Shown here one piece after another: positions 9,851-62,856 of a stretch of DNA of 64,000 nucleotides. Position 1 is the stretch's first letter; every line of letters begins with the position of its first letter. The DNA is taken from contig CAIPTO010000106.1 of NCBI GenBank assembly GCA_903867985.1, positions 30,373 through 94,372 on the forward strand, written 5' to 3'. A model generated the notes under the pieces. It saw only the letters and a list, made by a program, of their open reading frames with translations, was not told where the DNA came from and searched no databases. Origin of the DNA: an uncultured Elusimicrobia bacterium. Its GTDB lineage: Bacteria > Elusimicrobiota > Elusimicrobia > Elusimicrobiales > UBA9959. The position numbers were made by a program, and so were the translations under genes.

Positions 9851-11590
9851 ATGAAAAAGCTTAGAATTTTACTGACTCTCTGTCTGCTGGCCGAACAGTG
9901 CGTTGTGCCGGTGGCGGTGGTCTTCGCGCAGGACTCCCAAACTCTGGAATCTGACAAGAATTTTACGCAGGATCTTCAGGGACCTTCCTCCGAGGATGGC
10001 GGACCCATACTGAATCACCCGGCCCAGGAGAATCCTCCACCCCAGACAATGCCTCAAGCCTCCACTCCCGGCGCTCCCATAGAATCCGTGCAGATCGGTG
10101 CTGTTCCCCGGGAGGCCCCAATGTACGAGGAGGCTGAAGCTATATCGCCTCTTGACCGCAAGATAGGCCCCATTAGACTTAAGGGAGCCCCCCTGTCTAC
10201 ATTCCTGGACGTGGTATCGGCGCAATCTAAGGTGAATTTCATCATCACCGAAGGTCTTGAAGCCAAAACTATCACCGTTTTTTTACGGAAGACTACTGTG
10301 CGCGAAGCTTTGGAACTTCTGCTGCGAGTCAAGGGGCTGACCTACCAGCGTATAGGCAAAAGTAACACCTATGTAGTCCAGAAACGTTCCGCCGACATGC
10401 CTAATCTGATCACCAAAATATATGTGCTGAATTATATCCCGCTGATCGCGATCGGCTCCGTGGGCGAGGACATGGCGGCCGTCACTTCCCAGGATGTGTC
10501 ATCCTCGGGCGGTTTGTCCTCGGGTGGTTCATCCTCTGGCGGATCGTCCTCGGGCGGCTCATCTTCCGGCGGCAGTCAGCAGAATACCGCCAAGGAAGAA
10601 GATAAGGGTATAGCAATCATGAGTATTATCAGAAGCGTCCTTTCAAAGAAGTACGGCAAGATGGCTAATGATCCCAGAACTAATACTCTCATAATTACCG
10701 ATGTGCCGGAAGTTTTTCCGCAAGTCGAGCAGATTATAGCCGAACTTGATAAAAAAGCTCCCCAGATACTCATAGAGGCTCAGATAGTAGAGATCAACAC
10801 GGATCGCCTTAACGAGCTTGGCATAGAATGGGGCGGCGCACGGGGCGAGATGGCGTATTTCGCCGGCCCCGCCCGCGTGACCGACTACGGCTTAAGACCC
10901 GGATTTTTTTCCGGCGACCAGTGGAAGAATTTCTTTCCGAAATCGGTTGAGACCGTGGGAACACCTCCCTCAGCCGGCAGCACGATCGACCCGGTATTCA
11001 GTACCGGGCAACTCAGTCCTAAAGGCGTATTCTACGGCATATTCAGTCTTGCGCAGCTGCAGGCCACCTTCCGGGCCCTTATTTCGCGGGGAGAGGCGCG
11101 GTACCTCGGCAAGCCCAGGATCGTAGCCATGAACAACAAGACTGCCGTTGTGACGGTTTCCAGAGATGCGGCCGTAGGGCAGAGCTCCCAGGTCTCCTCC
11201 GCCGGAGGCTCAACGGGGTCGTCCACGACCGGGGCGGAAAGACGCAGGGTAGGCTTGACCCTTAAGGTCACGCCGCAGGTCAACAAGGAAGGTTATATTA
11301 CGCTGGTTGTCATGCCCTCTTACTCCGACCTGGTCGCTTCCGCTGTCACAACCACAGGCTCCACGATATACGACCCGGTAAGCCGCGGCGCGTCCACTAT
11401 GGTCAGGGTAAAGAACGGACAAACCGTTGTGATCGGCGGCATGCTTTCTTCCACTGAGACCAAGAGCGTGAAAAAAGTGCCGTTGTTGGGTTATATTCCG
11501 ATCATAGGCTGGCTGTTCACCAGCGTCAGTTCCAGGCGCACGAATACCGATCTGGTGATTTTTGTGACACCTACTATTTTGGTAGACTAA
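9851..11590 (+). CDS. Secretin (PilQ/GspD family outer-membrane channel)
   Basis: It has a signal peptide and the secretin N-domain motif NTLIITDVPEVFPQVEQIIAELD. The C-terminal secretin core is VPLLGYIPIIGWLFTS...TDLVIFVTPTIL. Confidence 0.85.
   Translation: MKKLRILLTLCLLAEQCVVPVAVVFAQDSQTLESDKNFTQDLQGPSSEDGGPILNHPAQENPPPQTMPQASTPGAPIESVQIGAVPREAPMYEEAEAISPLDRKIGPIRLKGAPLSTFLDVVSAQSKVNFIITEGLEAKTITVFLRKTTVREALELLLRVKGLTYQRIGKSNTYVVQKRSADMPNLITKIYVLNYIPLIAIGSVGEDMAAVTSQDVSSSGGLSSGGSSSGGSSSGGSSSGGSQQNTAKEEDKGIAIMSIIRSVLSKKYGKMANDPRTNTLIITDVPEVFPQVEQIIAELDKKAPQILIEAQIVEINTDRLNELGIEWGGARGEMAYFAGPARVTDYGLRPGFFSGDQWKNFFPKSVETVGTPPSAGSTIDPVFSTGQLSPKGVFYGIFSLAQLQATFRALISRGEARYLGKPRIVAMNNKTAVVTVSRDAAVGQSSQVSSAGGSTGSSTTGAERRRVGLTLKVTPQVNKEGYITLVVMPSYSDLVASAVTTTGSTIYDPVSRGASTMVRVKNGQTVVIGGMLSSTETKSVKKVPLLGYIPIIGWLFTSVSSRRTNTDLVIFVTPTILVD
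10499..10573 (+). repeat. Five 15-nt in-frame repeats encoding (S/L)SSGG within the secretin
   Basis: The five units are tcatcctcgggcggt, ttgtcctcgggtggt, tcatcctctggcgga, tcgtcctcgggcggc and tcatcttccggcggc. Confidence 0.85.
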
Positions 11591-17770: not shown

Positions 17771-17809
17771 CCGGGCAAAGCCCCACAGCCAAAAATAAGA
17801 CCGCAGTTA

Positions 17810-17876
17810 GCCTCCCGAACGTGCGGTCCGCTATGTTGGCGGAAAGTTGGAACCGCAGCTTGGGGGTTAACCTGAA
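17810..17876 (+). repeat. Half copy (3' module) of the ~190-nt structured repeat, directly abutting copy A
   Basis: GCCTCCCGAACGTGCGGTCCGCTATGTTGGCGGAAAGTTGG...GGTTAACCTGAA aligns with 17994-18054 of copy A. Confidence 0.6.
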
Positions 17877-18056
17877 TCCTGCAGTTCAAGGTATATCCCA
17901 TTGATAAAATCAGGGAACAGAATTATTCTGCAGGATTCCCCGCAAAGCGGGCGGAGGGACCAGCGCTATGCGCGCCTGGCCCGACGAGGTGTATGCCTCC
18001 CGAATGGGCGCCCGCTATGCGGGCGGAAAACTTCAACTGAAGTTTTCAGGTTAATC
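17867..18056 (+). repeat. ~190-nt structured repeat, copy A (candidate ncRNA or MITE-like element)
   Basis: Termini TTAACCTGAA (17867-17876) and TTCAGGTTAA (18045-18054) are complementary. The inner stem is ATCCTGCAG/CTGCAGGAT. There are several GC hairpins with TAT loops. It is about 80 percent identical by eye to the reverse complement of 43301-43487. Confidence 0.7.
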
Positions 18057-20867
18057 CTTACTTTTTGTTCCCAGGTGTTCTTTAAGGTAAAAGCCGGTGT
18101 GAGAGCCGGGCACTTTGACGATGCCCGGCGTATCGCCGGCGTAAATGAGTTCTCCGCCGGCAGAGCCCCCGTCGGCGCCAAGTTCGATTATCCAGTCAGA
18201 AGATGCTATTACGTCAAGATTATGCTCTATGACCAGAACAGTGTTTCCTTGGTCGGCAAGCCGGTGAAGTACTTTCAGCAGTTTTTCCACATCGGCGAAA
18301 TGGAGACCGGTCGTGGGCTCGTCGAGGATGAAAAGCGTACGGCCGGTAGAGCGCTTTGCCAACTGCCCAGCCAGCTTCATGCGCTGTGCTTCTCCTCCCG
18401 AAAGAGTTGTGGCGCTTTGGCCGAGTTTTATGTAGCCCAGTCCCACTTCACGCATGGTTAAAAGCACTTTGGCTATCTGCGGTATCTCTGAGAAATGGAC
18501 GGAAGCCTCGTCGGCCGACATATCCAGGACCTCCGCGATGTTTTTTCCTTTGAATTTAACTTCCAGCGTGTCCTCGTTGAAGCGAAGCCCGTGGCATTCC
18601 TCGCATTTGACATAGATGTCGGGGAGGAACTGCATCTGGATCTTTATAGTCCCGTCGCCCTGACAGGTCTCGCAGCGTCCGCCCTTAACATTAAAAGAAA
18701 AGCGGCCCGGCTCATAGCCTCGGCGCTTGGCTTCAGGGAGGCGGGAGAAGATATCCCGGATGCAGTTGAAGACTCCGGTGTAGGTGGCTGGGTTAGAACG
18801 GGGCGTTCGGCCTATCGGCGACTGGTCGACTATGATGACCTTATCTATATTCTCTTCGCCTTTCATGCTTTTGAAGCGCCCGGGGTTTTCTTTGGAGTTG
18901 TAAAGTTTTTTGGACAGCGCTTTGTATATGATCTCGTATAGCAGGGTGGATTTCCCGGAACCGGACACGCCGCACAGCGTTACAAAAAGGCCGAGGGGAA
19001 TCTTGATGTCTATACCCTTCAGATTAAACTGTTCCGCTTTTATGAATTCCAGCCAGCCTTTATCCGGCTTGCGCAGCGGATGGCTGATAGAGACTTTCTT
19101 GTCGCCCCGCAGGAAAGCGCCTGTTATGGATTTCTTATTCCTGAGTATAGAGGCGAGATTCCCCTGAGCGATGACATGACCGCCGGCAAGTCCGGCGCCC
19201 GGTCCGAGATCCACGATGTGATCCGCGTTGCGGATGACTGCCTCATCATGCTCCACAACAATAAGAGTGTTGCCCAGATCGCGCAGCGACTTGAGAGTTG
19301 TTATAAGTTTGGCGTTATCACGCTGGTGCAACCCGATGGTGGGTTCGTCCAGCACGTAGAGCACGCCGGTCAGGCCGCTGCCTATCTGGGTGGCCAGCTG
19401 TATACGCTGCGCTTCGCCCCCGGATAGAGTTTCCGAGCGGCGGTCAAGCGAAATGTAACCCAGGCCGACATTTGTAAGAAAACTTAAGCGGGCATTTATT
19501 TCTTTGAGTATCAGTCTGGCGATAACGCGGTCTTTTTCACTCAGCGATAATCCGGATATAAACTCCTTAATCTCTGAAATGGGCAGGCTGGAGACCTGGA
19601 CGATGTTTTGACTCCCCACCAGTACATGCAGACCCTCGGGCTTCAGGCGCTGGCCTTTGCAGATACCGCAGGTTACTTCATGCATAAATTTGCGGTAGAT
19701 CTCTTCCTTGACGAAATCAGATTCCGTTTCCGTATACCGGCGCTTGAGGTTTGTAACTACGCCTTCAAACTCCCCGCCCGGTTCGCCGCGCAGGATTATA
19801 TCGCGGGCTTCCTTCGTCAAGTCACGCCAGGGCTTATCCAGGGAAATATTATTTCTTCCGGCCGCATCAATTATCATTTCCATGTAATAGCCAGACCAGG
19901 AGTTCTTCCAGCGGTGAGTGCGGGTAGTGACCGGGTTTGACCAGGCTTCGATCGCCCCGCCGTTGATGGATTTTGAGATGTCGGGGACGACCAGATCCGT
20001 ATCTATTTCAATTTTAACTCCGAGGCCGCCGCATTCCGGGCAGGCGCCGAAAGGGGAATTGAAGGAGAAGAGCCGGGGCTCCAATTCGGGAAAGCTGATG
20101 CCGCACGACGGACAGGCATTCTTCTCGCTGTAAAGGGCGGGGGCTTTGCCCGTGGCGCCGGATTCCACCGCAACCAGCCCGCGCCCCTGGGCCAGGGCCA
20201 GTTCCACAGTTTCCGTGAGCCGCTCTTTTTCACCGTCTCCGGCGGTCATCTCATCCACGAATAGTTCTATATTGTGCTTTACATAACGGTCTAGTTTCGG
20301 AACCGAGTCCAGGTCGAAAATTTTCCCGTCTACGCGGATTTTAATAAATCCGTTTTTTTTAAACTTAGCGAATAATTCCTCATAGGTGCCTTTGCGGCCG
20401 CTGATCAGCGGAGCGAGAATCTTTATTTTTTTACCTGAATATCGCGAGGATATCTCCGCGACTATACCTTGTGCAGACCAGGCCTTTATCGGGCGTCCGC
20501 ATTGCGGACAGAACGGCGATCCGACTTTGGCGTAGAGGAGGCGCAGATAGTCGTAAATCTCGGTAACCGTACCCACGGTGGAACGCGGATTTTTTGAGGG
20601 AGTGTGCTGCTGGATGGCGATGGCAGGCGAAAGGCCCTCTATGGATTCCACGTCAGGCTTTTCCATCTGCTCTAAGAATTGTCTGGCGTAGGCTGACAGA
20701 CTTTCCATGTAGCGGCGCTGTCCTTCAGCGTAGATAGTGTCGAAAGCAAGGCTGGATTTGCCCGATCCCGAGAGTCCGGTCAGCACCACCAGTTTATTCT
20801 TGGGCAACTCTATGGTTATATTTTTAAGGTTGTGCGCTTTCGCGCCGGTTATTTTGATCTTATCCAT
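18051..20867 (-). CDS. uvrA: Excinuclease ABC subunit A
   Basis: 938 aa with two ABC ATPase modules (GLSGSGKSSLAFDT, GVSGSGKSTLL, LSGGEAQR x2) and zinc-finger cysteines. Confidence 0.97.
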   Translation of the reverse strand: MDKIKITGAKAHNLKNITIELPKNKLVVLTGLSGSGKSSLAFDTIYAEGQRRYMESLSAYARQFLEQMEKPDVESIEGLSPAIAIQQHTPSKNPRSTVGTVTEIYDYLRLLYAKVGSPFCPQCGRPIKAWSAQGIVAEISSRYSGKKIKILAPLISGRKGTYEELFAKFKKNGFIKIRVDGKIFDLDSVPKLDRYVKHNIELFVDEMTAGDGEKERLTETVELALAQGRGLVAVESGATGKAPALYSEKNACPSCGISFPELEPRLFSFNSPFGACPECGGLGVKIEIDTDLVVPDISKSINGGAIEAWSNPVTTRTHRWKNSWSGYYMEMIIDAAGRNNISLDKPWRDLTKEARDIILRGEPGGEFEGVVTNLKRRYTETESDFVKEEIYRKFMHEVTCGICKGQRLKPEGLHVLVGSQNIVQVSSLPISEIKEFISGLSLSEKDRVIARLILKEINARLSFLTNVGLGYISLDRRSETLSGGEAQRIQLATQIGSGLTGVLYVLDEPTIGLHQRDNAKLITTLKSLRDLGNTLIVVEHDEAVIRNADHIVDLGPGAGLAGGHVIAQGNLASILRNKKSITGAFLRGDKKVSISHPLRKPDKGWLEFIKAEQFNLKGIDIKIPLGLFVTLCGVSGSGKSTLLYEIIYKALSKKLYNSKENPGRFKSMKGEENIDKVIIVDQSPIGRTPRSNPATYTGVFNCIRDIFSRLPEAKRRGYEPGRFSFNVKGGRCETCQGDGTIKIQMQFLPDIYVKCEECHGLRFNEDTLEVKFKGKNIAEVLDMSADEASVHFSEIPQIAKVLLTMREVGLGYIKLGQSATTLSGGEAQRMKLAGQLAKRSTGRTLFILDEPTTGLHFADVEKLLKVLHRLADQGNTVLVIEHNLDVIASSDWIIELGADGGSAGGELIYAGDTPGIVKVPGSHTGFYLKEHLGTKSKD

Positions 20868-43300: not shown

Positions 43301-43487
43301 ATTAACCTGAAAGTTGCAGGTGCGACTTTCCGCCTGTATAGCAGGCGCCCGATCGGGAGGCATACATCTTCTCGGATACATCGCGCATAGCGCTTGATCC
43401 TCGACCCGCTGCTGCGGGGAATCCTGCAGAATAATTCTGTTACTCGATTTTATCAATGAGATATACCTTAATCTGCAGGATTCAGGC
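43301..43487 (-). repeat. ~190-nt structured repeat, copy B (inverted relative to copy A)
   Basis: The reverse complement aligns with 17870-18056. The element begins directly after the deacetylase TAG stop (43487-43489) and ends 27 nt before the GT9 ATG. It is therefore co-oriented with the flanking - strand genes. Confidence 0.7.
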
Positions 43488-44305
43488 TAAAACAGTCTTG
43501 ACGCTCCCCGCTCAAGATGAAGTCTTAGATCCAGATTACCCTCGCCGCGTTTTATAAAAAGGCGGTCAATGGGACCGGAATCCGGGTTCCATGGCCAGGG
43601 CGTTTTGCCCTGCTTAAAACTGAAATCCAGAACATAGCCGGCCTTTAGCGCGCTGGCCCGTACCGCAGGCGAATAAGCGCCCGCCCCGTAAGGGTAGGCG
43701 AAAGCGGACATTTCCGCTCCGAGCGCGGCCTCAAGTTGTTTTTTTGATTCCGTTAATTCCCATGCCGCGTCTTCCAGGGTGAGCTTTTCAAGATTGGGGT
43801 GGTTCATGGTGTGAGATCCGAATTCTATGACCCCGCTTTCCCGCATTTCCCTGAGCATCGCCAGGTCGGCCATGTTGACCCACGGTTCGGTTTTAGGGTT
43901 GTGCCAGAGATTGACTTTGCCGATGGTGTTGTAAACCACAAAAATATTTCCTTTGGCGCCGAGCTCGCGCAGTATTTTGTAAGCATGCGAGTAGTTGTTC
44001 TCATAGCCGTCGTCGAAAGTGATGAGCACCGCTTTCTCGGGGAGTGGTTTTTCGCCTCTATGGGCTTTAAGGAGATCCGAAAACAGTACCGTCACGTAGC
44101 CATGGGCGTTCAGCCAGGCGACCTGAGAACGGAATTTTTCAGGGGTAACCCACAGGTCTTTCAGCTTTGAACCGGCGGGAGGGGTCCCGATCTTATGATA
44201 CACCAAAACCCGGAGGCCCGGGGTCGTGCGTCGCCACCAGGCCCAACGGGCGCTGACAAGCGCCGCTCCCAAAAAAGCTGCAGAGGCAAGAAATTCTTTA
44301 GTCAT
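43487..44305 (-). CDS. Polysaccharide deacetylase (CE4 / NodB-type) with N-terminal membrane anchor
   Basis: VLITFDDGYENNY, GSHTMNHPNL and AFAYPYG are present. The ATG at 44305 has GGAG 5 nt upstream, whereas the track start at 44326 is TTG. Confidence 0.8.
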   Translation of the reverse strand: MTKEFLASAAFLGAALVSARWAWWRRTTPGLRVLVYHKIGTPPAGSKLKDLWVTPEKFRSQVAWLNAHGYVTVLFSDLLKAHRGEKPLPEKAVLITFDDGYENNYSHAYKILRELGAKGNIFVVYNTIGKVNLWHNPKTEPWVNMADLAMLREMRESGVIEFGSHTMNHPNLEKLTLEDAAWELTESKKQLEAALGAEMSAFAYPYGAGAYSPAVRASALKAGYVLDFSFKQGKTPWPWNPDSGPIDRLFIKRGEGNLDLRLHLERGASRLF

Positions 44306-46772: not shown

Positions 46773-49700
46773 ATGAGAATGTTCAGGAACACGATCGTGA
46801 CGCTCGGACTGTTGGGCGTTTTTAATTTTTGCGCAATGGCGGGAGAAATAAAACCCGGCTCAGTGCCCGGCTCCCTCAATTACCAGGGCCGCCTTGAAAG
46901 GGATAACGCGCCCGTCAGCGGGCCGGTTTATCTGACTTTCAGGATCTATAATGTTGCGACCGGTGGCGATCCGGCCGCGTGCGGAAATTCGGGAGCGCCC
47001 TGCCGATGGGCCAGCGCCGAAGCCGTGGTCAACGCCGTGCAGGGCATTTTTAACGCGTCAATAACCCCACCTTGGAGTGTTTTCGCGAACGGCGAGGCGC
47101 TTTATCTTGAGGTGCAGGTTGAAAGCGACGTTCTGTCTCCCAGAGAGCCGCTGAACAGCGTGGCTTACGCCATGGTGGCAAAGAAGCTGGAGGACGGAGC
47201 TTCGATTTCGGTTACCACGCTTACCACCACCGGTAATGTCGGTTTAGGCACCAGCTCTACCGCGAACAGGCTATCCGTAAGCGGGATAATAAAACTTGTC
47301 GGCACTTCCGACGGGATCTGTTTCTCGAATAACACATGCATGTACACAGCGGGAGTCGGCACCGCGGTCGGCGGCGTTACCAGCCCTGTGGAGAGCATTC
47401 TGGAATCCGACACCGCGCTGGCCGGCGGTGAAATGATATTTAAGACTTCAACTGTGGAGAGAATGCGCATAAAGGATGCTTCTAAAAACGGCAGAATAGG
47501 CATAGGCCCGCTTGCTCTGACTGATCCGCTCGGGACCGTGGATATAGACGGGTCGCTCTATGTGGGAAGCCAGGGCATCTATGATAGGACAGGCGGATCG
47601 GTGACCGTAAAGGGGCTTTATGTTCCGGACGGCGGAATAACCGGCGCTAACTCGGAGTATTTATTGCTGGGCAGTGAAAATGACGTGATAGCGCTTGTGA
47701 GCGGCGGCGCCGAGCGGCTACGCGTGCATTCGAACGGAAATGTCGGCATAGGACTTTCAAATCCCTCGGATAATCTTGAGGTGGCGGGCGATATAGCCTC
47801 AAATACCGGCGTCAGGGGCGGAAGAGTTTCGATGGGAGATTATTCGACCTGGACCAACCTTGCGAACGAGGTGCGATCCGAAACCGGATACCATCTTCTT
47901 CTTCAGCAGACCAATAATTATAATGTAGGCATAGGCACCAATGCTCCTACTGAAAAACTCCATGTGCGCGGCAACATTAAGGCTGATTACGGGGTTATCG
48001 CTGCCACCGCCGCCTTCTCGGATTCAGTTCGGGTTGATGACGAGGGGAATTTCACGGCCAACTCCGGCCACGGGAATATGGTCTATCTTTCATCAACCGT
48101 AGTATACGGCACCCTGCTGGTGACCGGTGGCGTGGGCTCGGAAAAGGGCCTCCCCGCTTACCTCACAGACAATAATATCTTAACCGGACAGAACACTTTC
48201 ACGGGTCTGGTAACGGTTTCCACCAGCATGATCGTTTCCAACCGCGTCGGCGTGGGAGTCAGCGATTTCGATTTCCCTGCCTCCAAATATCTTCAGATAG
48301 GAGACGATAAACCGGAGTTCTCAGGTGATGACGCCGCGGCCTACCTGGTGTCCGGGAGCGCGGCTAACTCAAAAGTCTCTTTTTATCGCGGAGCTGTGGA
48401 GGCCGCCCGCATCCAGACCAACAGCGGCAATAACCTAGCGTTGGTGATAAATAATTCCACCAAGTCGGTTGTTGACAGCACCTATTACCGCATATACAAC
48501 AGCGTAGTTCTTATCTCAACCGGCAGTAGTTCCGTAAGCGCGACCACGCCGGCCGTTTATGTGAGCTCCTCGCTGGGCAATATAGGTATGGGCACCTCCA
48601 TCCTGGATCCGAATCATCGCCTTACCGTCGCCGGCAATATACGGATTTCCGGGCCCACCACCAACGGCCTTATTTTCGCGGATGGCACGACTATGTGGAC
48701 CGCCAATGTCGGTTCTGTGGGCTCAGTTTCCAGTAACGATGACGCGGTGGTGCGGGCCGATGCCAATTCCGACGGCATAGGCAATGTCGTGCTGCGCGTC
48801 GGAAGCGTGGACGGACTTCTGCTTAACTCCGGCGGCAATATCGGCATCGGCACATTAACGCCTTTGAGCAGGTTGGATGTCGCCGGCGATCTTAATATCA
48901 GCGCCGGTGGAATTCTGCTGACCGCAGGCACGGAAAGGATCTCAGCCGGCGGGGTTTTAACAAACACGACCTGGCACGGCAATACGGTGGATGTAATTTA
49001 TGGCGGCACCAATTCCGACACGGCCCTCTCGGGAAGCTCAATAATGGTTTCAGACGGGGCAAGTATAGTGCAAGGGAACAAAGGCACAGCAACCACGGTT
49101 TTGCATGGCAACGACGCCGGAATTCCCACTTACGCAGCCGTGGCGCTTGGGGCTGCCGGAGATGTGAGCGGTACTTTGACCGTGGCCAACGGCGGAACGG
49201 GACTCGCCTCGGGTCTTGCCGGCGGTCTCCCCTATTATTCCGCGACCAACGAGATGACTTCCATGTCCGCTGGCAGCATTGGTCAGCCGCTTCTTTCCAA
49301 CAACACCGGTGCCCCATACTGGGGAACCCTGAGCGCATCATATGGCGGAACAGGGCTGACTGCCGGCACTGCCGGCGGTCTTCCATATTTTTCCGCGACT
49401 AACGCTATGGCCTCTACGTCGGCCGGTACCGCCGGTCGGGCTCTTCTTTCAGGCGGCACAGGCGCTCCGACCTGGGGACAGGTTTCGCTCACCGCCGCCG
49501 TAAGCGGCACCCTGCCGATAACAAACGGCGGTACCAATTCCGCAACCGCCCTCTCGGGAAGTTCGATCATGGTTTCAAACGGTACCAATATTTTACAGGG
49601 ATCGGCTGGTACAGTGACCACGGTGCTGCATGGCAACGCGTCAGGCACTCCGTCCTACTCAGCGGTGTCGCTTACGGCGGATGTAAGCGGCATTTTGCCC

Positions 49701-50372
49701 GCAACCAACGGCGGCACCGAGAACGGGTTTGTCAAATTCAGCGGCCCGGCCTCAACGGCTAAAACATTTACTCTGCCGAACCAAACAGCCATCATCCTGA
49801 CTGATATTGCAACAGTGACGGTGGCCCAGGGCGGAACCGGATTGAATGTGGGTGTTGCCGGTGGTTTTCCTTATTATTCCGCGACTAACGCTATGACATC
49901 AATGTCGGCCGGTACTGCCGGCCAGGCGCTTCTTTCCGGCGGCACAGGCGCTCCGACTTGGGGGACCTTAAGCGCTTCATACGGGGGCACTGGACAAACC
50001 AGTTATGCCGTGGGTGATATCCTTTACGCTTCAGGGACCGGAACATTATCAAAATTGGCTGACATTGCAACGGGCAATGCCTTGATTTCCGGCGGCGCTA
50101 ATACCGCGCCTTCATATGGAAAGATAGGCCTGACTACGCATGTAAGCGGTACCCTGCCGATAGGCAGCGGCGGTACCAACAGCACCTCCTTTACTGCCAG
50201 CCAGGTTATACGCATGAATTCCGGCGGCACAGCCCTTGAAAGCCAGGCCGGCGCTTCCGGGACATATAGCGTTGCGCGCACGACCACAACAACCGGAACC
50301 CCATGCAATGATTGGACTTTCGCTAACGGCGTACTTACAGGTGTTTCAGGTGATAAGGCATGCAATCCTTAA
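46773..50372 (+). CDS. Large secreted fibre-like repeat protein (phage tail-fibre-like motifs)
   Basis: It has a signal peptide. The N-terminal domain is LNYQGRLERDNAPVSGPVYLTFRIYN...LSPREPLNSVAYA. About 7 GN(V/I)G(I/L)GT...L.V.G units follow. The C-terminal third is built of nested units with NGGTG/YGGTG/GGTNS motifs. Confidence 0.5.
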   Translation: MRMFRNTIVTLGLLGVFNFCAMAGEIKPGSVPGSLNYQGRLERDNAPVSGPVYLTFRIYNVATGGDPAACGNSGAPCRWASAEAVVNAVQGIFNASITPPWSVFANGEALYLEVQVESDVLSPREPLNSVAYAMVAKKLEDGASISVTTLTTTGNVGLGTSSTANRLSVSGIIKLVGTSDGICFSNNTCMYTAGVGTAVGGVTSPVESILESDTALAGGEMIFKTSTVERMRIKDASKNGRIGIGPLALTDPLGTVDIDGSLYVGSQGIYDRTGGSVTVKGLYVPDGGITGANSEYLLLGSENDVIALVSGGAERLRVHSNGNVGIGLSNPSDNLEVAGDIASNTGVRGGRVSMGDYSTWTNLANEVRSETGYHLLLQQTNNYNVGIGTNAPTEKLHVRGNIKADYGVIAATAAFSDSVRVDDEGNFTANSGHGNMVYLSSTVVYGTLLVTGGVGSEKGLPAYLTDNNILTGQNTFTGLVTVSTSMIVSNRVGVGVSDFDFPASKYLQIGDDKPEFSGDDAAAYLVSGSAANSKVSFYRGAVEAARIQTNSGNNLALVINNSTKSVVDSTYYRIYNSVVLISTGSSSVSATTPAVYVSSSLGNIGMGTSILDPNHRLTVAGNIRISGPTTNGLIFADGTTMWTANVGSVGSVSSNDDAVVRADANSDGIGNVVLRVGSVDGLLLNSGGNIGIGTLTPLSRLDVAGDLNISAGGILLTAGTERISAGGVLTNTTWHGNTVDVIYGGTNSDTALSGSSIMVSDGASIVQGNKGTATTVLHGNDAGIPTYAAVALGAAGDVSGTLTVANGGTGLASGLAGGLPYYSATNEMTSMSAGSIGQPLLSNNTGAPYWGTLSASYGGTGLTAGTAGGLPYFSATNAMASTSAGTAGRALLSGGTGAPTWGQVSLTAAVSGTLPITNGGTNSATALSGSSIMVSNGTNILQGSAGTVTTVLHGNASGTPSYSAVSLTADVSGILPATNGGTENGFVKFSGPASTAKTFTLPNQTAIILTDIATVTVAQGGTGLNVGVAGGFPYYSATNAMTSMSAGTAGQALLSGGTGAPTWGTLSASYGGTGQTSYAVGDILYASGTGTLSKLADIATGNALISGGANTAPSYGKIGLTTHVSGTLPIGSGGTNSTSFTASQVIRMNSGGTALESQAGASGTYSVARTTTTTGTPCNDWTFANGVLTGVSGDKACNP

Positions 50373-62573: not shown

Positions 62574-62647
62574 GCCCCCTTAGCTCAACTGGATAGAGCA
62601 ACTGCCTTCGGAGCAGTAGGTTAGAGGTTCGAACCCTCTAGGGGGCA
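62574..62647 (+). tRNA. tRNA-Arg (anticodon UCG)
   Basis: Manual cloverleaf. The acceptor is GCCCCCT/AGGGGGC and the D arm is GCTC/GAGC. The anticodon stem is ACTGC/GCAGT with loop CTTCGGA. The T arm is AGAGG-TTCGAAC-CCTCT and the discriminator is A. No CCA is encoded. Confidence 0.9.
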
Positions 62648-62683: not shown

Positions 62684-62787
62684 GCCATTCGCCGTTTGCC
62701 ATAGGCCGTACGCAGAAAGCCCATGCAGAAGGCTCATAAGGGAATCTCTTTAAAAGTTTATGGCTAATGGCATAAGGCAAATGGCGG
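62684..62787 (+). repeat. Heptad inverted-repeat element, GCCRT type, between tRNA-Arg and the next gene
   Basis: GCCAT at 62684, GCCGT at 62691, GCCAT at 62698 and GCCGT at 62705 have a 7-nt period. The inverted partners are ATGGC at 62760, ATGGC at 62767, AAGGC at 62774 and ATGGC at 62781. Confidence 0.7.
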
Positions 62788-62856
62788 ACGTTTACTGTCA
62801 TAATTTCGTAATCTATTCTTAACGTTCCTGAAAGACGGATATAAGACACTATATAT

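Follow-up and report, generated by a model that had tools for sequence, protein, structure and literature searches.

The DNA analysed here, a 64,000-nt stretch from an uncultured Elusimicrobia bacterium (the window), carries two copies of a repeat at gene ends, which raises the question of what this repeat is and how it came to lie there. A sequence-only reading of the window had offered three possibilities: a small ncRNA gene family, a structured 3'-UTR or terminator module, or a MITE. The analysis supported the third of these, on the basis of inverted ends, 4-bp duplications, dispersed copies and empty orthologous sites. Taken together, the results make it likely that the repeat is a small non-coding MITE of Elusimicrobia, which targets YTAR sites, mostly TTAA, and is moved in trans.

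Copy A (positions 17867-18056, plus strand) aligned from end to end with the reverse complement of positions 43301-43490 (copy B) at approximately 80% identity, as the sequence-only reading had stated, and the two copies constituted the top inverted-repeat pair of the window. They are oppositely oriented and lie 25 kb apart. Searches with nhmmer, using an HMM built from A and B, recovered each of the two copies with E = 1e-67 and yielded a partial third match at positions 17806-17870 (E = 1e-7). A covariance model of the 3' domain of the element matched this third, half copy over its full model length with 27.6 bits (E = 3e-5), versus 79-95 bits for intact copies. The half copy (17807-17866, plus strand; TTAGCCTCCCGAA...CTTGGGGG) had been taken for a duplication of the 3' module of copy A. 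The partial copy is real, and it is an older, 5'-truncated and decayed copy that retains the 3' domain only; it ends in ...GGGGG/TTAA, and copy A later inserted into this flanking TTAA. The description of the element as non-coding was correct, since 1-nt indels and a 46-nt insert between copies leave no shared open reading frame.

The window consists of housekeeping DNA, with genes for a type IV pilus/T2SS, uvrA, LPS core, lpxK, Lpt, SecDF, queuosine and ruvB, and is part of an Elusimicrobiales genome; its deacetylase and peptidase have 100% identical counterparts on a 103-kb ENA contig, and their named relatives are from Elusimicrobiales MAGs. Copy B lies between genes for a polysaccharide deacetylase and a heptosyltransferase in an LPS-core/lpxK operon, upstream of lpxK. 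Copy A lies between a peptidase gene and uvrA. Both copies had been described as directly following a stop codon. This applies to copy B, which sits on the TAG of the deacetylase gene, but not to copy A, for which the peptidase stop codon is 96 nt upstream and the half copy intervenes.

Further copies were sought in MAG and metagenome collections with a degenerate pattern for the 3' module. This search yielded six dispersed loci in the Elusimicrobiota MAG ELA399 and 15 true loci in metagenomes, corresponding after de-duplication to about 20 elements at no fewer than 16 independent loci. Eight other pattern matches (L011, L013, L020, L022, L023, L025, L027 and L028) were chance hits in GC-rich coding DNA and were discarded. 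The flanks of the other copies were unrelated to the window, so that only the element itself was common to both. No copies were present in a scanned collection of viral contigs, and blastn returned no match in plasmid and phage collections. The copies fell into two subfamilies, alpha and beta, whose main difference is located in hairpin P3.

Trimmed on the alignment, the element proper extends from CCTGAA to TTCAGG over 180-181 bp. Its terminal inverted repeats of ~17 bp are imperfect (CCTGAAtccTGCAGTT versus CCTGAAagtTGCAGTT, 13-14 of 17 bases matching). In the beta-like copy A, the element proper covers 180 bp (17871-18050, plus strand). Its left repeat, CCTGAATCCTGCAGTTC (17871-17887, plus strand), agrees in 13-14 of its 17 bases with the reverse-complemented right end, and its right repeat (18034-18050), which reads CCTGAAAACTTCAGTTG on the minus strand, is the 3' arm of hairpin P7. 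Copy B, a member of subfamily alpha, covers 181 bp (43306-43486, minus strand). Copy A is flanked by TTAA on the left (17867-17870, plus strand), which at the same time flanks the older half copy on its right, and by TTAA on the right (18051-18054, plus strand), in which positions 18051-18053 form the uvrA stop codon TAA on the minus strand. The corresponding 4-mers of copy B, both on the minus strand, are TTAG on the left (43487-43490), with the deacetylase stop codon TAG at 43487-43489, and TTAA on the right (43302-43305).

The outermost bases of the repeat had previously been interpreted as part of a 10-bp closing helix. Among 20 aligned copies, the left 4-mer was TTAA in 11, TTAG in five, CTAA in three and ATAA in one. 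Because TTAA is palindromic, only the variant 4-mers can tell a direct from an inverted repeat, and the informative pairs agreed directly (TTAG/TTAG, CTAA/CTAA twice, and ATAA/ATGA). Across the 16 independent loci, a direct match was found at 52 of 64 4-mer positions (permutation p = 0.0016), and the inverted reading gave p = 0.86. This direct-repeat behaviour, together with the A.C mismatch that 8 of the 20 copies show at pair 4-360, led to rejection of a TTAA...TTAA closing helix, the outer part of which is target-site duplication instead. A TA-only (IS630-type) duplication was likewise rejected, as the TA-adjacent left base complemented its right partner at only 7 of the 16 loci. These statistics indicate that the flanking 4-mer is a 4-bp target-site duplication with the consensus YTAR, mostly TTAA, the type of evidence by which the MITE option was to be checked. 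As no empty/filled pair could be aligned on both flanks, the duplication is inferred from these statistics and not from a single pair; comparison with an empty orthologous site confirmed the left junction.

Comparison of orthologous sites provided evidence for mobility. At site B, where the window reads ...AAGACTGTTTTAG/CCTGAA...TTCAGG/TTAA/TCATT..., the sequence at an 85% identical deacetylase orthologue is ...AAGACTGTTTTAA/AGCG... and contains no element, the heptosyltransferase gene following after a 52-nt spacer; the empty orthologous site ends in ...GTTTTAA. An 81% orthologue is followed by a 6-nt spacer, again without an element, and in both of these empty-site orthologues the deacetylase stop codon lies inside TTAA or CTAG. 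Next to an 83% orthologue, a diverged member of the family in the opposite orientation abuts the same stop-codon TTAA, and an 86% orthologue is accompanied by a probable distant relative (covariance model E = 0.004). At site A, an 87% peptidase/uvrA orthologue has a 55-nt spacer that contains neither the element nor the half copy, and beside a 76% orthologue a diverged copy of the long form, oppositely oriented, again adjoins TTAA. The presence of empty sites (L035/36, L044 and L037) and of sites occupied in other species by other members (L038 and L042/43) at orthologous positions showed that the element is mobile, that its targets are TTAA-like and that the same gene ends are hit repeatedly.

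The proposed sequence of events would thus be that a unit of ~181 bp with inverted ends inserts at YTAR and duplicates it. This target preference also bears on the association with stop codons, which lie inside the duplicated 4-mer at 5-6 of 16 loci. In the window, the density of YTAR in non-coding DNA is twice that in coding DNA, the stop codons of 21 among 50 genes fall within a YTAR, and about 30% of the non-coding YTAR sites are stop-codon sites. A YTAR target preference combined with selection against intragenic insertion therefore predicts the observed stop-codon fraction, and, as TAA and TAG are contained in YTAR, the position at stop codons is no evidence of a 3'-UTR function. Intragenic insertions would be selected out, with the surviving copies accumulating at gene ends, where the duplication would regenerate the stop codon on either side of the insert. 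The element thereby illustrates clearly how a preference for YTAR/TTAA can seat an insertion exactly on a stop codon with neither neighbouring gene harmed.

This origin of the stop-codon position also weakened the earlier suggestion of a structured 3'-UTR or terminator module, for which a hairpin followed by a U-tract was lacking. No terminator-like hairpin with a U-tract was detected in copy A or copy B, whose P7 is rich in AU and leads into UUUCAGG. Strong termination by copy B is moreover unlikely, given its place inside the LPS-core operon upstream of lpxK. Of 15 copies, 12 were co-oriented with the gene immediately upstream, a moderate signal, and two copies were antisense within tandem gene pairs. 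Most copies would, with this orientation, probably be co-transcribed as 3'-UTR or intercistronic RNA.

Insertion of IS5 generates a 4-bp target duplication with the consensus YTAR and occurs preferentially in non-coding DNA (PMC5009759). Like IS5, the element is flanked by 4-mers of this type (TTAA, TTAG, CTAA and ATAA), a signature expected if an IS5-type DDE transposase acted in trans; unlike members of the IS5 group, it has no transposase gene, and the link to the group is by target signature only. The ends of IS5 (GGAAGGTGCGAA...) show no evident resemblance to the CCTGAA... ends of the element. No transposase was encoded in the 64-kb window, where a Pfam analysis of about 47 ORFs returned housekeeping genes only, and neither an autonomous partner nor a transposase with matching ends was found in the window or in the collections scanned. 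Mobilisation in trans by an IS5-like DDE transposase is the probable mechanism. Solo ends were encountered as remnants at other loci. Two solo left ends were considered as ends of a parent IS and dismissed: at L005:5517 a remnant of 17 nt lies between two stop codons, and the left end at L018:1308 is followed by unrelated short DNA.

The main mechanistic rival is a hairpin-end element moved by an HUH/Y1 transposase, such as an IS200/IS605 PATE or a REPIN/RAYT system, which would insert beside TTAA without duplicating it, so that the right-hand TTAA would belong to the element. Several features of the family resemble such elements. Subterminal hairpins are present at both ends, and in L038, L042 and L034 their structure is conserved but not their sequence; the left and right hairpin arms are alike (GAAtccTGCA versus GAAagtTGCA); the interior is made of short REP-like palindromes; and a single empty site is compatible with either mechanism, since TTAA is palindromic. 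This resemblance is nevertheless partial. The co-variation of left and right 4-mers as direct repeats is not predicted by an insertion without duplication, which disfavours this mechanism, as do the opposite orientations of copies A and B, the absence of Rfam matches on either strand and the absence of tnpA and tnpB from the window. An HUH/Y1 origin is accordingly regarded as quite improbable, and a MITE with duplicated YTAR targets remains the preferred reading.

The sequence-only reading had rested to a large extent on differences that preserve base pairing, and the fold was examined in the enlarged family. In copy A, on the plus strand, the predicted structure includes hairpin P2 (17874-17938), whose 11-bp stem GAATCCTGCAG/CTGCAGGATTC encloses a dispensable AT-rich interior and is paired in 98% of cells over 18 copies. 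It is followed by P2b (17939-17951, CCCGC-AAA-GCGGG; 97% paired, no covariation) and by P3 (17952-17986), whose internal loop is a tandem G.A/A.G and whose apex is GCGC-UAU-GCGC. The 3' domain (17995-18050), the unit that is preserved in the half copy, consists of a predicted closing helix GCCU/AGGU around hairpins P5a (CCC-GAAU-GGG), P5 (CGCCCGC-UAU-GCGGGCG) and P7 (GAAAACUUC-AACU-GAAGUUUUC). Each terminal repeat forms one hairpin arm, that of P2 on the left and that of P7 on the right. Alternative long-range pairings, of the 5' end with a middle AGGUG and of GCCU with AGGY so as to close the 3' domain, each had some support in these 20 similar sequences.

Copies A and B differ by 36 substitutions, about 18 of which occur in nine base pairs that are changed on both sides with pairing kept (one in P2a, four in P3, one in P5 and three in P7). 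The pairing-preserving differences noted earlier in three helices were therefore confirmed, with the addition of the terminal hairpin P7, whose three changed pairs had been missed. One of the three helices was real and retained pairing but had been given incorrect boundaries, which were corrected to CGCCCGC-TAT-GCGGGCG (18009-18025). Substitutions in about 20 copies were likewise helix-keeping. In the 20-copy alignment, a structure of eight helices (P1 tip, P2, P2b, P3a/b, P3c, P5a, P5 and P7) was paired in 95.8% of cells, with double changes at 10 pairs. Its covariation score was 0.140 versus 0.081 in shuffles, a value that none of 500 shuffles reached, and when partners were slid by 1-3 columns as a control only 30-46% of cells were paired. 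The most informative helix was P3, with four covarying pairs around the conserved tandem G.A/A.G. The diverged copy L038 retained P3, P5a, P5 and P7 despite its different sequence: its tandem G.A is replaced by G-C/C-G, resulting in a continuous 9-bp P3 helix, CCC/GGG of P5a is replaced by GCGC/GCGC, and P5 and P7 each contain one compensated pair.

The elements occurred in discrete lengths between 135 and 361 nt. The standard form measures about 189 nt. In the 135-nt form (L003 and L019), the interior of the 5' hairpin P2 is deleted and the remainder is intact and conserved. A 235-nt form has a 46-nt insert (i1) at the apex of P3, a form of ~315 nt has a 126-nt insert (i2) in the loop of hairpin P4, just 5' of the 3' domain, and the 361-nt form contains both. 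Insert i2 was found at the same position in both subfamilies. The length variation was thus confined to hairpin interiors or tips and would have arisen by deletion inside P2 or by insertion at the P3 tip or in the P4 loop. Nested mobile elements were considered as the identity of i1 and i2, which were, in the sequences analysed, found only within copies of this family and had no inverted ends. The P4 helix itself, GAGGU/GCCUC, was weakly supported. A C-UAU-G apex recurred above covarying stems in several hairpins: a standard copy has two such hairpins, i1 contributes three and i2 one further, and L038, in which part of i1 is an inverted duplicate, has about eight.

Whether the fold reflects a functional RNA or a property of the DNA was evaluated by comparing strands. 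The folding of copies A and B was markedly better than that of dinucleotide shuffles (z = -8.0 and -5.4, respectively), and the same held for their reverse complements (z = -9.4 and -5.4). Mismatches in helices were balanced, with about 10 G.U and 11 A.C. The balanced mismatches, the folding of both strands and the inverted part of i1 together single out no strand as RNA. As the ends and hairpins are palindromic, the same substitutions maintain pairing on both strands, and the striking apparent RNA covariation has a simpler origin in palindromic transposon ends and hairpins. In short palindromes, compensatory changes can arise free of selection by template switching within quasi-palindromes. 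The compensatory changes in the element could therefore be the product of such DNA-level template switching, with no RNA function involved.

These observations also affect the proposal of a small ncRNA gene family, in which the copies would be independent sRNA genes whose internal promoter drives a ~125-nt transcript that spans P2b, P3 and the 3' domain and stops at P7. The promoter-like sequence TTGATA-17 nt-TATTCT, located in the P2 loop, was indeed present in both window copies (17901-17929, plus strand, in copy A; 43428-43456, minus strand, in copy B), with a sigma-70-like match at 9 of 12 positions in each, and shuffled sequence gave 0.2-0.4 such sites. It is directed into the structured half of the element, and the part downstream of it is the best-conserved, covarying region. 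It is not, however, a defining feature of the family. The -35 hexamer is conserved only in subfamily alpha, members of beta having TTTAAG, TTTAGG or TTGGAG, and the entire promoter-like segment is deleted in the otherwise intact and conserved 135-nt forms. In addition, P7 has no U-tract or terminator-like site at which a transcript would end, a sigma-70-like consensus may not be the promoter rule of Elusimicrobia, and the element has transposon ends and target duplications. This proposal is considered very improbable. The sequence-only reading had not recognised the element as tmRNA, 6S, RNase P, SRP or a known riboswitch, and Rfam searches agreed: the window had no match at the gathering score, and at E values up to 10 the 361-nt form had none and copy A had two noise matches only (12-16 bits, versus thresholds of 45-70). 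The MITE reading accounts for the ends and duplications of the element, and a possible function of its transcripts has to be considered separately from its origin.

Such a function is suggested by the slow evolution of resident copies, which was analysed at four loci that are orthologous between two lineages and have flanks with 85-95% identity. In three of the four orthologous pairs, the elements were 96.4-99.4% identical. Within these pairs, 9 mismatches were counted in 502 nt of element and 496 in 5990 flanking nt (Fisher p = 2e-9), and the difference was unchanged when only the nearest 150 nt of flank were used. Intact resident copies thus evolved 4-5 times more slowly than the neighbouring, mostly coding DNA, and the truncated copy in the window has decayed. 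Retention of locus-specific variants makes homogenisation by other copies unlikely. The fourth pair, which differs by the presence of i2, diverged like its flanks. All sequences are from metagenome assemblies, in which repeats are prone to mis-assembly; within that setting, the slow evolution suggests selection on the intact element. It also counts against a purely selfish MITE, for which drift after insertion would be expected and is not seen in the resident copies.

The fold might, by inference from this conservation, be selectively maintained, for instance as a structure for stabilisation or processing or as a platform that proteins bind. This leads to a rival that shares the MITE origin with the best explanation and differs from it only in claiming a present function: an exapted, cis-acting RNA module, which as a folded transcript would by now be of use to the host at the ends of genes. 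The candidate roles are that it might be a stabiliser of 3' ends against exonucleases, an intercistronic site for RNase processing or a platform for a protein that recognises C-UAU-G. Such a function is consistent with a conservation of resident copies 4-5 times that of their flanks and their retention of locus-specific variants, with decay of the truncated half copy, with co-orientation of 12 of 15 copies with the upstream gene, with covarying stems under a constant loop motif, and with length changes restricted to hairpin tips and loops; effects of ERIC and Correia elements on mRNA are documented (PMC2229807, PMC3049150). It is less readily reconciled with G.U and A.C mismatches that show no strand asymmetry, with the two copies that are antisense within tandem gene pairs, with diverged members that are reversed at the same sites, and with an orthologous pair that evolved as fast as its flanks. 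Exaptation is on balance considered possible but not probable, and the host-level role of the fold to which conservation would point is correspondingly doubtful. Unlikely, too, is the more specific proposal of a mobile, host-retained structured RNA module, whose core of repeated C-UAU-G triloop hairpins, a tandem G.A motif and the three-hairpin 3' domain has spread via stop-codon TTAA sites to many genes' 3' ends and acts in cis or as a protein platform; if it were true, purifying selection on resident copies would be several times stronger than that on neighbouring genes.

The small non-coding MITE that is thus favoured can be compared with several known classes of intergenic repeats. ERIC (IRU), a 127-bp MITE-like imperfect palindrome, is similarly a small, non-coding, intergenic repeat with inverted ends. 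Its longer variants are due to inserts at fixed internal positions. The two elements differ in that they share no sequence similarity and occur in different host phyla, and in that ERIC forms one long stem, whereas the element described here combines several local hairpins with a three-hairpin domain and makes a 4-bp YTAR duplication. ERIC sequences are co-transcribed with neighbouring genes, with an orientation-dependent effect on mRNA (PMC2229807). The Correia/NEMIS elements of Neisseria contain promoter-like sequences and give rise to transcripts that fold (PMC2229807, PMC3049150), and, like the present family, they are non-autonomous, carry inverted repeats at their termini and vary in length through internal deletion. 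The repeats of Correia elements are 26 bp long, their duplication is TA, and they have an IHF site and a single long duplex that is cut by RNase III; the element described here has repeats of ~17 bp, a YTAR duplication, a multi-domain fold and another host, and no IHF-like site was seen in it when the consensus was checked by eye.

With REP/BIME and REPIN sequences the family has in common a location at gene ends and an interior mosaic of short GC-rich palindromes (SSC-TAT-GSS), which can occur in either orientation. REP elements can have a stabilising effect on the mRNA upstream. Their units measure 20-40 nt, lack inverted terminal repeats and target duplication and are tied to RAYT, in contrast to the defined 181-bp unit found here, which has ends and duplications and moves as a whole. 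The CIR of Caulobacter and the BOX of pneumococci are modular and have multi-arm predicted RNA folds of phylogenetically conserved structure (PMC2229807, PMC3049150). The element resembles them in its multi-arm fold, modular make-up and conserved structure, but sequences and hosts are unrelated, and it is unclear how CIR and BOX move, whereas insertion polymorphism and duplication are evident for the present family. By analogy, the element may work like ERIC, Correia, CIR or BOX, with no sequence in common. Its fold with several domains, its choice of target and its modular inserts set it apart from them, and its well-conserved, hairpin-rich core is unusual.

The family is apparently the first MITE family to be documented in the poorly studied Elusimicrobiota, being absent from the literature searched, from Rfam and from the plasmid and phage collections. 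The slow evolution of its resident copies and its recurring C-UAU-G hairpins are leads on the domestication of MITEs as structural modules of RNA or DNA. In practical terms, repeats of this kind can be mis-annotated as sRNAs and break metagenome assemblies; several of the metagenome contigs in the present data set terminate inside copies of the element.

In other species, the TTAA at the deacetylase stop codon and the spacer between the peptidase and uvrA genes, the two positions occupied by the element in the window, each hold different and more diverged relatives of it. Such relatives were located in the comparison contigs L034 (3316-3480), L042 and L043 (2316-2480 in each), and L038 (1625-1921), in the opposite orientation. 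The element family thus extends beyond the members that the strict search pattern was able to recover. In the window, the stop codon of uvrA is provided by the right TTAA of the element, and the encoded UvrA protein ends in HLGTKSKD (18051-18075), whereas the protein encoded by L037 (approximately 2415-2445), an 87%-related genome without the element at the uvrA end, terminates in HLGVRSR.

At one orthologous site, a 126-nt insert, i2, located just 5' of the 3' domain of the element, was present in one lineage (L005:3815-3940) and absent from the other (L021:7589-7591). Its position was identical in copies of the alpha and beta subfamilies. Recombination or site-specific insertion has carried i2 from one copy to another.

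Left ends of the element were also found alone. A solo left end of 17 nt, TTAG|CCTTAATCCTGCAGTTC|TAG, at L005:5517-5540 (equivalent to L015:9718-9741), resembles either what a deletion would leave behind or the footprint of an excision; two convergent ORFs meet here, with their stop codons exactly on either side of it. On the minus strand of L018 (1176-1333), a solo left end of 26 nt precedes a complete copy, and approximately 130 nt of unrelated DNA rich in hairpins separates the two, a tandem or nested arrangement that resembles locus A in the window, where copy A is inserted beside an older, decayed half copy. The ends of four metagenome contigs (L032, L033, L037, and L038) fall within or right beside a copy of the element, and its repeats evidently interrupt short-read assemblies of these genomes.

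The recurring spacer motifs ATGGCTAATRGC and GGCAAATGGC, together with GCC-ATA-GGC palindromes, may represent another REP-like repeat family of these genomes, distinct from the element. This set occurs in the window at 62700-62810, just past a tRNA gene (62574-62647), and in comparison loci L002 (1285-1400), L012 (2418-2433), L018 (1215-1226), and L041 (2320-2470). Repeats were also detected within genes of the window. Diverged internal direct repeats (49000-50250; units of approximately 150-180 nt, 62-87% identity) lie in an ORF of 1199 amino acids (46773-50372) and suggest that it encodes a repeat-domain surface protein. Within the gene for a PilQ-like secretin (9851-11590), a 15-nt periodic repeat resembling TCATCCTCGGGCGGT comprises at least four units (10499-10572).
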